Positions 24,818 to 28,486 of a stretch of DNA of 32,000 bases are shown one piece after another. A program made the position numbers and the translations under genes. The notes below the pieces were generated by a model. That model ran no database searches and had not been told where the DNA came from. It was given only the letters and a program-made list of their open reading frames with translations. Location: the NCBI RefSeq assembly GCF_000016745.1, contig NC_009483.1, positions 1,530,001 through 1,562,000 on the forward strand, in the 5' to 3' direction. Source of the stretch: Geotalea uraniireducens Rf4 (lineage in GTDB: Bacteria > Desulfobacterota > Desulfuromonadia > Geobacterales > Geobacteraceae). Positions within the stretch are counted from its first letter, which is position 1. Each line of letters begins with the position of its first letter.

Positions 24818-25345
24818 CTAAAATCCTGTTTCGTCAATTCGTAACAGTCTATGACCTTCAAAAACGGATAGTATTTCAATATTACTCTCCGTTAGCCTGT
24901 CAGCGTTGTCCGGTTTGGTTTTTGCTTACGTCCCGTAGGGACAGAATACTGGTAGCCGGGGAATTCATTCCCCGGTCATCCAGGCGAAATATCATCACGT
25001 CACGTACGTGACGTGGGGAAATATAGCATCTCATCCGGGGGATGAATCCCCCGGCTACATTCGAACGCCCCTAATGGGGCTTAACAACCTTGATGCACAA
25101 ACCAAACCGGACAACGCTGTTAGCCTGTAAACAATTCGATATTTCCTGAATATCAACTCTCTTATGTCGGGATTGGCTATTTCAAGTACAGTCCTGCCCA
25201 TCCGAGGATTATCAGGCAAAGAATCTTCGGCATGTTCAATTAGCTGATCGACAAAAACTGCCGTTCTTTCTGGGCTGTCTTTTGAAATAAATTCTTCAAT
25301 TTCGATTAATTGTTCAAGAGCTTCATTTGTCCATTTTATTTTCAT
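24818..25345 (-). pseudogene. ParE/RelE-family type II toxin gene disrupted near its 3' end by a MITE
   Basis: Residues 1-75 (MKIKWTNEALEQL...FRKYRIVYRL) are ParE-like. After codon 75 the present ORF reads into the element (TALSGLVCAS...). Removing 24901-25128 restores ...YRLTESNIEILSVFEGHRLLRIDETGF*, with the stop at 24820-24818, a canonical ParE C-terminus (99 aa). Confidence 0.8.
24901..25119. mobile_element. 219-bp MITE-like non-autonomous element with 21-bp perfect TIRs and a 9-bp target-site duplication
   Basis: TIR-L CAGCGTTGTCCGGTTTGGTTT (24901-24921) is the exact reverse complement of TIR-R (25099-25119). Direct repeats TTAGCCTGT lie at 24892-24900 and 25120-25128. The interior is packed with palindromes (CCGGGGAAT..ATTCCCCGG, CACGTCACGTACGTGACGTG, CCGGGGGAT..ATCCCCCGG) and has no ORF. 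Confidence 0.8.
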
Positions 25346-25351
25346 TCCGGA

Positions 25352-25636
25352 TTATTCCTTGCTTCTTCTTGCAGCTAGAGCCGCTTTGATTTCATCAGTG
25401 TTGTATGTCCTTCCACTTTCGGCATCTGATATTCCTCTGCCAACAGAATCAAGAAAAGATTTTTTGTACACCAAATCGTCATAGTCATCCGGTGACAATA
25501 GTACTCCGGCCGGCTTTCCATTCTGCGTAATAATCAAGGGATGTCCAGATTTCTGAAGACTTTTGAACCACTTGGAGATGCCTGTCTTAAACTCGGCAAT
25601 TGGAATTATATCGTTTTTGATCGAAATGGTTTTCAT
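25352..25636 (-). CDS. Phd/YefM-family type II antitoxin
   Basis: 94 aa. IPIAEFKTGISKWFKSL...HPLIITQNGKPAGVLLSPDDYDDL is the Phd/YefM fold signature. The stop lies 6 nt upstream of the ParE-like toxin start. Confidence 0.87.
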   Translation of the reverse strand: MKTISIKNDIIPIAEFKTGISKWFKSLQKSGHPLIITQNGKPAGVLLSPDDYDDLVYKKSFLDSVGRGISDAESGRTYNTDEIKAALAARRSKE

Positions 25637-26152: not shown

Positions 26153-28486
26153 ATGAAGATTTCCAGTAAGGTATTAGTGCTATTCTTCTTCACCATTGCG
26201 CTTGGAGTCGGCCAGTTGTGGATTTCGGATGCGACTGCACAATCATCGTACTTCACGAGCAGAGGCTGCGTTAACTGCCATGCAGCCCCAACAGTTGCCA
26301 CCTGCAACGGCTGTCATCACCATGGGAATTCATCGTTGAAAGCAGTCACCGACAAGACTTCCTACGCACCTGGGGAGACGGTAACGGCAACCCTCAGCGG
26401 CGGCAGCAGAACCGGCTGGATCAGGGCCATTCTGTATGACCAGAACAACACTCAAGTTGCCGTATCGAACGGGAACGCCAGCGGCATGGGTGGTTCAACC
26501 ACGTTCCCGGCGGCTCTGACCGCATCGGCGCCAACAACGCCGGGCAGCTATACCTGGAAGATGGCCTATTTTGGCAACCAGGATGGCACAGGGACTGGGG
26601 ATGTCCACAGTGAGGTGACTGTCAACACCAATTCATTCACCGTTGCCGCACCACCAGCACCAGCCGACACCACTGCACCGACTGTAAGCACCTTTACCCT
26701 GCCTGCAACCGCCACCAGCCTGAACGTGCCGGTTACCGCATTTACCGCAACGGACAACGTCGGCGTTACCGGTTACATGATCACCCTGAGCGCTACAGCT
26801 CCTTCTGCCGCTTCTACCAGCTGGACTGCTTCAGCCCAGTCAAACGTCACAGCCGCAGGTGCCGGCACGACAACGTTCTATGCCTGGGCCAAGGATGCGG
26901 CGGGTAATGTGTCGCTCTCCAAAAGCGCCAGCGTGAGCATATCGCTGCCTGACACTGCTGCACCGGTAGTTTCTGCCTTTACCCTGCCGGCGACCGCAAC
27001 CAGCCTCACCGTTCCGGTCACAGTATTCACCGCCACGGATAACGTAGGTGTTATCGGTTACTTGGTCACGATGAGTGCCACGGCACCTTCCGCCTCAGCA
27101 ACAGGTTGGACGGCAACAGCACCGGCGAGCGTTACCGCAACAGCTTCCGGCCTTACTCTGTTTTACGCCTGGGCCAAGGATGCAGCGGGTAATGTTTCAC
27201 TTGCCAAGAGTGCCGGCGTGACAGTAACTATTACTACAGCTGACACCACACCACCAACCCTGACCATCTCGGCCCTTGCAAATGGCGCCTACACCAACAA
27301 AGCCACTCTCAACATCAGCGGCAATGCCAGCGATGCAGGCGGACTCCAGTCCGTTACCGTTAACGGCGAGGCAGTTGTTGTCAACCCCGACGGGTCCTTC
27401 AGCGCCGCCCTGACCCTTGCAGTCGGAGCCAATACCGTTACGGTTATCGCCACCGACAAGGCCGGCAACAAGCAGACTGATATCCGTACAATAACCTTTG
27501 ATCCAGCTGCACCGGTTCTCACCGTCTCGGCCCCGGCCGATAACAGCAGCTCAGCCCAGGCGTTCATTACCCTGACCGGCGCTATTAACGAAACCTCTAC
27601 GGTTACGGTCACAGACAACAACGGCAGCCCGCAAGCCGCCATCATCAACGGCAACAACTTTACCGCCACCGCCAATCTGGTGTCGGGCGTCAACACCATC
27701 GTTATCACTGCTGCCGACCTGGCAGGCAACATTACCAGCGCCAAGCGGACAGTAACCTATGACAGCGGCAAGATGACTCTGGCGGTGACCTATCCCAATC
27801 AGGACATTACCACCAGGAATTCGAGCCTGGTCCTCAAGGGCAGCATCGTTGACGCGTTAAGCAAAGTTACCGTTAAAATCACCATGAATGGCCGCACCTA
27901 TACCCCTAAGGTCACTAACGGCGCTTTTTCGCAAAAACTCACCTTCACGAAGGCTAAACAGTATTCCATTACCATCACTGCCAGGGATACGGCCGGCAAC
28001 AGCAGTAGCGTAAGTCGCAACGTGATCTACCGTCCTGCCGAAAAGGGTGACGATGACGACGACAATGACAACGACAACGACAACGGAAGCAGCAACGGCA
28101 GCGGCAGCAGCAACGGCAGCGGCAGCAGCACCAGTCACTCCTTCGGCTGGACTAACCCGAAGAGCAGCCACCCTGATTACGTGGAAAAAAACGGCGTCGG
28201 CAACTGCGTCAGCTGCCACAGCATCGATCAGGCTTCAAAGGGGCAGACGATGAGCTGCTACAACTGCCACGGTAAGAAATGGGATACACCTTCGACTGGA
28301 GGCGGTGATTCCGGCGGCAGCGGCAGCAGCACCAGTCACTCCTTCGGCTGGACTAACCCGAAGAGCAGCCACCCTGATTACGTGGAAAAAAACGGCGTCG
28401 GCAACTGCGTCAGCTGCCACAGCACCGACCAGGCCTCCGAGGGGCAGACGATGAGCTGCTACAACTGCCACGGTAAAAAATGGTAG
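26153..28486 (+). CDS. secreted or cell-surface modular multiheme c-type cytochrome (six CXXCH) with Ig-like repeat domains
   Basis: SD AAAGGAG plus a signal peptide. N-terminal paired motifs CVNCH-7 aa-CNGCH. Two tandem modules of about 95 aa and three further Ig-like modules of about 88 aa (..ATDKAGN.., ..AADLAGN.., ..ARDTAGN..). Asp/Asn and Ser/Gly linker, then two near-identical C-terminal di-heme modules (CVSCH-12 aa-CYNCH). Confidence 0.88.
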   Translation: MKISSKVLVLFFFTIALGVGQLWISDATAQSSYFTSRGCVNCHAAPTVATCNGCHHHGNSSLKAVTDKTSYAPGETVTATLSGGSRTGWIRAILYDQNNTQVAVSNGNASGMGGSTTFPAALTASAPTTPGSYTWKMAYFGNQDGTGTGDVHSEVTVNTNSFTVAAPPAPADTTAPTVSTFTLPATATSLNVPVTAFTATDNVGVTGYMITLSATAPSAASTSWTASAQSNVTAAGAGTTTFYAWAKDAAGNVSLSKSASVSISLPDTAAPVVSAFTLPATATSLTVPVTVFTATDNVGVIGYLVTMSATAPSASATGWTATAPASVTATASGLTLFYAWAKDAAGNVSLAKSAGVTVTITTADTTPPTLTISALANGAYTNKATLNISGNASDAGGLQSVTVNGEAVVVNPDGSFSAALTLAVGANTVTVIATDKAGNKQTDIRTITFDPAAPVLTVSAPADNSSSAQAFITLTGAINETSTVTVTDNNGSPQAAIINGNNFTATANLVSGVNTIVITAADLAGNITSAKRTVTYDSGKMTLAVTYPNQDITTRNSSLVLKGSIVDALSKVTVKITMNGRTYTPKVTNGAFSQKLTFTKAKQYSITITARDTAGNSSSVSRNVIYRPAEKGDDDDDNDNDNDNGSSNGSGSSNGSGSSTSHSFGWTNPKSSHPDYVEKNGVGNCVSCHSIDQASKGQTMSCYNCHGKKWDTPSTGGGDSGGSGSSTSHSFGWTNPKSSHPDYVEKNGVGNCVSCHSTDQASEGQTMSCYNCHGKKW
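26666..27241 (+). repeat. tandem coding repeat, two units of about 285-291 bp (Ig-like modules)
   Basis: The units start at 26666 (DTTAPTVSTFTLPATATSLNVPVTAFTATDNVGVTGY...FYAWAKDAAGNVSLSKSASV) and 26951 (DTAAPVVSAFTLPATATSLTVPVTVFTATDNVGVIGY...FYAWAKDAAGNVSLAKSAGV). Confidence 0.85.
28115..28483 (+). repeat. direct duplication of a 168-bp di-heme module (copies at 28115-28282 and 28316-28483, period 201 bp)
   Basis: By manual alignment the copies differ at only 6 positions. Five of these cluster at 28224-28238 (SIDQASK versus STDQASE) and one lies at 28276. Confidence 0.9.

Follow-up and report, generated by a model that had tools for sequence, protein, structure and literature searches.

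A Chunjie-type miniature element in the toxin gene of a Phd/ParE pair of Geotalea uraniireducens Rf4

The interrupted toxin gene and its element

The stretch of DNA analyzed here, referred to as the window, comprises 32,000 nucleotides of the Geotalea uraniireducens Rf4 genome (contig NC_009483.1, positions 1,530,001 to 1,562,000) and carries a chromosomal toxin-antitoxin (TA) pair whose parE/relE toxin gene is interrupted by a MITE (miniature inverted-repeat transposable element). The upstream gene of the pair encodes a Phd/YefM-family antitoxin that matches the PhdYeFM profile with 69.1 bits and is intact, in agreement with a preliminary description of the locus that had been made from the sequence letters. 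In the operon the toxin gene comes last, and at a distance of 18 nt it faces a convergent Haem_bd gene, so that no polar effect of the insertion is expected. It is the toxin rather than the antitoxin that was hit, and the insertion is therefore survivable for the cell.

The element is bordered by two copies of the direct repeat TTAGCCTGT, and its ends read CAGCGTTGTCCGGTTTGGTTT. Its terminal inverted repeats agree at 21 of 21 positions, or at 24 of 25 when they are extended to 25 bp. Apart from these two ends the 21-mer has no site in the window, even if up to 3 mismatches are allowed, and it occurred in none of 100 dinucleotide-preserving shuffles; a parent insertion sequence (IS) is absent from the window, as had been proposed. 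Since the right inverted repeat terminates in a G, the direct repeat can also be read as 10 bp, which is what a repeat finder returned (GTTAGCCTGT); based on the symmetric ends and on the other copies of the element, we favor a 9-bp duplication. The coordinates and sequences given in the preliminary description for the ORF-less 219-bp element (ORF, open reading frame), its inverted repeats and its 9-bp duplication all proved correct.

Between its ends the element consists of nested palindromes. As RNA it folds with -121.2 kcal/mol (z = -10.4 relative to shuffles) and as DNA with -68.1 kcal/mol (z = -10.9). Only mechanical ORFs of 40–44 aa cross it, and a scan for promoters and terminators yielded nothing beyond shuffle expectation, the sole terminator-like match being the central palindrome. 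The features of the locus are compiled in Table 1.

Table 1. Positions of the features of the interrupted toxin-antitoxin locus (window coordinates unless a locus is named).
Feature	Position	Strand	Remark
Orphaned parE 3' end (rest of codon 76, residues 77–99, stop)	24818..24891	-	severed by insertion
Left 9-bp target-site duplication, TTAGCCTGT	24892..24900	.	single copy in empty-site contigs
MITE, 219 bp, non-coding, Chunjie-type, subfamily A	24901..25119	.	absent from orthologous loci L017–L021
Left terminal inverted repeat (perfect over 21 bp; 1 mismatch over 25 bp)	24901..24925	+	
Two-hairpin module, Acido-Lenti-1-like (Rfam RF01687)	24929..24975	-	32.8 bits
Central 20-bp palindrome CACGTCACGTACGTGACGTG	24996..25015	.	
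Two-hairpin module, Acido-Lenti-1-like (Rfam RF01687)	25035..25081	+	36.3 bits
Right terminal inverted repeat	25095..25119	-	
Right 9-bp target-site duplication, TTAGCCTGT	25120..25128	.	
Interrupted parE/relE ORF, 96-aa chimera	25055..25345	-	75 native residues + 21 read from the MITE
Phd/YefM-family antitoxin, intact	25352..25636	-	upstream in parE operon, 6-nt gap
Truncated transposase gene region	L011 4487–5376		

In silico removal of the element together with one copy of the 9-mer, repeated here by a scripted check, gives a 99-aa ORF that stops at position 24818 and ends in YRLTESNIEILSVFEGHRLLRIDETGF, confirming the restored ParE/RelE toxin with a canonical C-terminus that had been described. 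The restored protein scores 56.3 bits against the Pfam profile ParE_toxin (PF05016; cut-off 23, E = 4.8e-15), covering profile positions 1–87 of 89, and also passes TIGR02385 (RelE/StbE) with 32.6 bits (cut-off 27.9). With both profiles matching, the toxin is assigned by sequence to the ParE/RelE superfamily and may either poison gyrase (ParE) or act as an mRNA interferase (RelE). The insertion lies in codon 76, where the hybrid codon, the first of the element-read ones, still specifies Thr76 and is followed by 20 foreign residues; the earlier count of native and element-read residues is thus correct.

In contrast to the restored protein, the interrupted 96-aa protein covers only positions 1–71 of the 89 in PF05016 (47.7 bits). 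In an alignment of 26 intact toxins, which are about 68–99% identical to the first sequence, the C-terminus IEILxVFEGHRLL is invariant or nearly so in all 26 and is replaced only in the window protein, by ALSGLVCASRLLSPIRGVRM; none of the 26 ends with the element-encoded tail. The toxin's C-terminus is therefore lost, as claimed at the outset. An AlphaFold model of the intact toxin places helices at residues 7–23 and 25–41 and strands at residues 61–66, 69–76 and 79–87; its confidence is low (predicted local distance difference test, pLDDT, 57) owing to a shallow alignment, and it was used for the order of secondary structures only. This order is as expected, and according to the low-confidence model the insertion would take away the last long strand (79–87) and the tail. 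A search of solved structures with the toxin returned one weak match, 6x0a (E = 0.0015). C-terminal truncation of ParE toxins lowers or abolishes toxicity, possibly via a loss of stability (2025 study, PMC11925232). With both the last predicted β-strand and the conserved C-terminus missing, the chimeric toxin is most likely non-functional. A G. uraniireducens protein (P0040) that is 100% identical to the 96-aa chimera is named by NCBI as an intact type II RelE/ParE family toxin, an annotation that should be flagged as a disrupted gene.

Empty and filled alleles and the family of the element

A protein search with the restored toxin retrieved, besides the chimera P0040, two 99-aa homologs, P0001 and P0002, with 99% and 98% identity, respectively. 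The DNA encoding P0002 is present in four metagenome contigs (L017–L020) and that of P0001 in a fifth (L021), which provides the comparison with relatives carrying an uninterrupted parE that had been suggested. The gene order Phd-ParE-Haem_bd is common to L017–L020, and L017–L019 run on into a cytochrome c peroxidase gene as the window does. When L017, L018, L020 and L021 are aligned with the window, each has ACAGGCTAA once and is shorter by exactly 228 bp (219 + 9) at this place; an identical intact ParE is encoded in L019. In BLASTN, L021 matches the window with 99.6% identity along 1688 nt on one side and with 100% along 92 nt on the other, and judged by this it belongs to the same species but has an empty site; for the flanks of L018 the identity is about 95%. 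A further contig from an independent sequencing run, L022, represents the filled allele: it is 100% identical over 3053 nt and stops 29 nt into the MITE, so that the filled junction is found again in independent data. Because empty and filled alleles occur at 99.6–100% identity, the insertion is, by sequence comparison, real, recent and polymorphic in a natural population. Transposition into parE with a 9-bp duplication, as originally described, is thereby proven as far as sequence allows, since orthologous empty sites exist. These alleles point to recent movement of the element in natural populations and offer a clean strain marker.

The filled allele (window and L022) carries a private A28T substitution (codon 28, 25262–25264, minus strand). 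Alanine occupies this nearly invariant position in the nearest empty alleles and in over 90% of the homologs, and A28T may reflect drift after inactivation.

The 21-mer of the element ends recurs in Geobacteraceae-type metagenome-assembled genomes (16 stretches), and 21 metagenome contigs carry it as well. Eight distinct sequences, including that of the window, form subfamily A; they occupy seven insertion sites and are 219 bp long except where an internal duplication of 17 bp in the small left hairpin extends them to 236 bp. The 16-bp core of the central palindrome is kept in all subfamily-A copies, with a single G-to-A change in two of them. One copy (L040) is identical to the window element at 218 of 219 positions and sits at an unrelated site within a 140-kb contig, flanked by its own duplication ATTATATTA. 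Counted across all subfamilies and including this one, perfect 9-bp duplications lie at 11 further sites (among them GATCGTTGT, GGATGAAGG, CGCCTCCTT, ATATTTTTT, AAACATATC, GCTCTGAAT, ACAAGGATC, AGAAAAAGC and GGTTTTTAA), and one more site has an imperfect duplication whose two copies differ at one position, AGG(G/A)TTATT. A duplication is missing from at least four copies (L010, L015, L036 and L042).

What the other members have in common is limited to ends of roughly 25 bp; their cores differ, indicating a modular family. Subfamily B (170–251 bp) is characterized by CCCCTCC/GGAGGGG hairpins, seen in forms of 187–251 bp in loci L002, L004, L008, L014, L032, L036 and L041, and short forms of 96–107 bp are found in L001, L009 and L042. 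Most of the MITEs with different cores have their own 9-bp duplication, which is not clear in L009, L036 and L042. Elements with the same ends are thus spread across the Geobacteraceae.

Three observations concern individual members of the family. The insertion site with the duplication CGCCTCCTT (L023, L025–L027, L033 and L038 versus L031) holds either the 219-bp or the 236-bp version, and because one site holds both lengths, some of the size variation in the family arises after insertion. In L015, a 170-bp copy (around positions 78–247) has flanks that are reverse complementary to each other (TGATCCCCTTTATCC and GGATAAAGGGGATCA) instead of direct repeats, which points to a copy that entered another palindromic repeat or to a composite element of greater length. 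Two loci lie close to other TA genes: L003/L035, which are one contig, carry a short element at a distance of about 0.8 kb from a homologous Phd/ParE pair that is intact, and in L043 (2208–2829) a solitary end lies between FitA-like and CopG/BrnA-like antitoxin ORFs. Such proximity may be due to chance, Geobacter genomes being rich in TA loci.

A MITE named Chunjie was reportedly published by Chen, Zhou, Li and Xu in 2008 (Genetics 179:2291). Chunjie is described as a MITE of Geobacter uraniireducens Rf4 that measures 178–235 bp, has inverted repeats of 21 bp and direct repeats of 9 bp and folds as RNA with about -98 to -130 kcal/mol; 38 copies are full and 57 partial, and several overlap with genes for proteins (PMC3184786; PMC10969869). 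One published copy, NC_009483:2632106-2632324, is exactly 219 bp long (PMC6042816). The window element shares the organism, the 219-bp length, the 21-bp repeats, the 9-bp duplication, the lack of coding capacity and a folding energy within the published range, and thus agrees with these published descriptors; it is very probably a copy of Chunjie. The preliminary description had announced the identification of a MITE family, and this holds in that the family is real, mobile and multicopy, but not in that it would be new, as it fits the one published in 2008 for this genome. The inverted-repeat string of the element had no match in the literature searched, and the accounts of Chunjie (PMC3184786, PMC10969869 and PMC6042816) are silent on the insertion in parE, on the transposase family and on the Acido-Lenti-1-like modules described below.

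Outside the TA pair, the window carries between this pair and a TPR gene a 777-aa ORF (26153–28486, plus strand) with Glucodextranase-B and Ig-like domains and two near-identical C-terminal CxxCH cytochrome repeats. L021 and L022 contain the gene. In L018, about 410 nt stand in place of the about 2.8 kb that hold the ORF in the window, which indicates a strain- or species-specific indel.

Hairpin modules and a candidate transposase

The two halves of the element each contain a two-hairpin module resembling the Rfam motif Acido-Lenti-1 (RF01687), arranged as an inverted pair. Both modules retain the conserved UGA loop and GGCUA linker and have E-values of about 1e-6, with scores slightly below the gathering score of 37 bits (Table 1). 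The equivalent module in the copy L010 (2864–2909) reaches 43.4 bits and thus exceeds the gathering score, whereas none of the other copies among 22 related loci scanned is at threshold. Compensatory double changes are found in L010 and L005, from G-C to U-A in the right module and from C-G to U-A in the left small hairpin, and the local hairpins are kept even where the complementarity between the left and right halves is lost. The other subfamilies combine the same inverted repeats with quite different cores; the modules are therefore cargo, carried by one MITE subfamily, and do not belong to the mobile machinery.

Descriptions of Acido-Lenti-1 are limited to Acidobacteria and Lentisphaerae, where it figures as a likely trans-acting candidate small RNA that is sometimes near group II introns and, according to the published flanks, lies partly within tandem repeats of about 200 nt in Lentisphaera (Weinberg et al. 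2010). It is doubtful that the modules are true members of this class, which would make Acido-Lenti-1 a structured module on mobile or repetitive DNA in at least three phyla. If they were, Chunjie-type MITEs would consist of 25-bp transposase-recognition ends around interchangeable structured cargo, and their insertion would seed hairpins into transcripts, here at the 3' end of the TA mRNA. The resemblance offers a cheap lead on the nature of an orphan Rfam motif.

The enzyme that moves the element was sought among the loci that carry its ends. All 21 metagenome loci with the repeat contain MITEs or solitary ends. L011 holds an ORF (P0121) of which only about 160 N-terminal aa are intact, and 110 nt upstream of it an identical 25-bp end is located. 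A word-indexed protein search with this ORF gave two matches, and an exhaustive HMMER search was needed to reach its family: with the N-terminus of P0121 it retrieved 929 relatives, many of them about 760 aa long. Among five relatives of about 750–800 aa that were scanned for domains, DruA/DUF4338 and Tnp_DNA_bind were present in all five, Dimer_Tnp_Tn5 in three and DDE_Tnp_1 in one, and the protein P0131 matches NCBIfam NF033590 (IS4 family transposase) with 381.8 bits. These proteins represent a large family of transposases of about 760 aa in which an N-terminal DruA/DUF4338 domain is fused to a Tn5-type IS4 transposase, seen at L011, L044, L045 and L046. At least 3012 proteins of this DruA/DUF4338-Tn5 type exist, encoded mostly on contigs of 2.4–3 kb, as expected of collapsed IS copies. 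The DruA/DUF4338 domain has been described as GNAT-like (PMC10853773), and no description of the DruA-Tn5 fusion as an IS group was found in the literature searched.

In L045 (1447–3809), a 2363-bp IS has Tn5-like CTGACT ends (CTGACTATT...) and a 9- or 10-bp duplication, and the spacing from the end to the start codon is 54–107 nt in the relatives, comparable with the 110 nt in L011. A relative IS in L046 (1394–3973) has 54-nt inverted repeats and no clean duplication and is hence uninformative on duplication length. Tn5/IS50 and IS10 make 9-bp target duplications, in keeping with that of the MITE. When ten DruA-Tn5 transposase relatives were compared by tblastn with all retrieved loci, they matched only the truncated gene in L011. 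Based on this one decayed copy, the odds are slightly in favor of an IS4-family, Tn5/IS50-like transposase with an N-terminal DruA/DUF4338 domain as the putative mobilizer, and the link between inverted repeat and transposase gives a cheap lead on the enzyme that moves Chunjie.

Alternative explanations and comparison with known systems

We estimate a probability of about 0.9 that the locus reflects an ordinary recent event, in which a copy of Chunjie inserted in codon 76 of a chromosomal phd-parE/relE toxin gene. In the proposed mechanism, a transposase supplied in trans would have moved the MITE into the gene by DDE cut-and-paste, duplicating the 9-bp target TTAGCCTGT. The last predicted β-strand of the toxin and its conserved C-terminus would thereby have been swapped for 20 unrelated residues, with the antitoxin left untouched, and the enzyme would probably have been of the DruA/DUF4338-containing, Tn5/IS50-like type. 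Several points weigh against this account. An autonomous full-length IS with CAGCGTTGTCCGG... ends is present in none of the 37 repeat-carrying loci, and the connection to a transposase runs through the single truncated copy in L011. The identity with Chunjie is based on matching descriptors, and one review calls Chunjie A+T-rich, whereas the window copy has 53% G+C. With respect to the toxin, the structure model is of low confidence, and as some ParE homologs are naturally non-toxic (PMC11925232), the intact gene may also have been harmless.

Short-read assemblies break at the element, as seen in L022, and an apparent insertion might arise as an artefact of sequencing or assembly, for instance through a chimeric join or the collapse of a repeat. 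However, the same junction is present in the independent run, the near-identical copy in L040 is complete and has its own duplication inside a 140-kb contig, and the source of the window is a complete genome, which together make an artefact extremely improbable. A different view would be that the insertion is a reversible switch, in which the palindrome between the 9-bp repeats is lost by replication slippage and the toxin restored, so that the empty alleles are revertants. Inverted repeats stimulate the precise loss of Tn5 and Tn10 from between their 9-bp repeats, and both the coexistence of nearly identical filled and empty alleles and the exact restoration of the frame upon excision with one repeat would be compatible with such a switch. 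Yet the more distant orthologs, with the flanks of L018 at about 95% identity, are all empty, which argues for the empty site as the ancestral state; in addition, neither excision footprints nor mixed alleles were seen within one sample, and the private A28T, which alters a nearly invariant residue, speaks more for drift than for maintenance. We therefore consider a switch very unlikely.

Likewise, the element could be read not as a transposon but as one or two structured small-RNA genes of the Acido-Lenti-1 type whose position in parE reflects an RNA function. The near-threshold scores of the window modules, their matching loop and linker, the score of the L010 module and the two hairpin pairs with compensatory changes in L010 and L005 speak for this reading. 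All other tested copies fall below the gathering score, however, and the modules lie inside a unit that is bounded by inverted repeats and a duplication, is present or absent as an exact 228-bp block and recurs at unrelated sites with fresh 9-bp duplications. Moreover, an RNA role of the cargo would still not explain the insertion, and a small-RNA gene in place of a transposon is very unlikely. An IStron or intron that restores the ORF at the RNA level was rejected, as no ribozyme or intron family was matched in Rfam.

Insertion of a Chunjie copy thus remains the preferred explanation. The preliminary description had further seen in it a case of TA domestication, which we do not uphold: there is no sign of a new function for the toxin remnant or the antitoxin, and domestication was rejected in favor of simple pseudogenization of a dispensable, last-in-operon toxin gene. 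The conceptual weight of the insertion itself is small, since disruption of dispensable genes, including toxin genes, by MITEs or ISs is routine and this MITE family is already published; new here are the transposase lead and the near-threshold Acido-Lenti-1 resemblance of the internal modules.

The interrupted genes resemble other type II pairs of the Phd/YefM-ParE/RelE kind in their two-gene operon with the antitoxin first, their 6-nt gap and their matches to the family profiles, and as an instance of the decay of such pairs by insertion the present case is nothing unusual. The modules share with Acido-Lenti-1 the two-hairpin motif of about 46 nt, the UGA loop, the GGCUA linker and scores at or near threshold, but unlike the described examples they occur in a Desulfuromonadota genome, as an inverted pair within a MITE. 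With IS50/Tn5, IS10 and their MITEs the element has in common the 9-bp duplication and short inverted repeats at the ends, and the N-terminal part of the L011 ORF, the only one met beside this inverted repeat, shows homology to the corresponding part of Tn5-type transposases with a match to NF033590. In contrast to Tn5, the ends of the element read CAGCG instead of CTGAC or CTGTC, and the candidate transposases, with about 760 aa, have an additional DruA/DUF4338 domain. Finally, like Correia elements of Neisseria, ERIC, RUP and Nezha, the elements described here are small and multicopy, have inverted repeats at their ends, duplicate their target, fold strongly and occur in empty and filled sites; unlike these, the members of the present family share only about 25 bp at each end, between which the cores are interchangeable.

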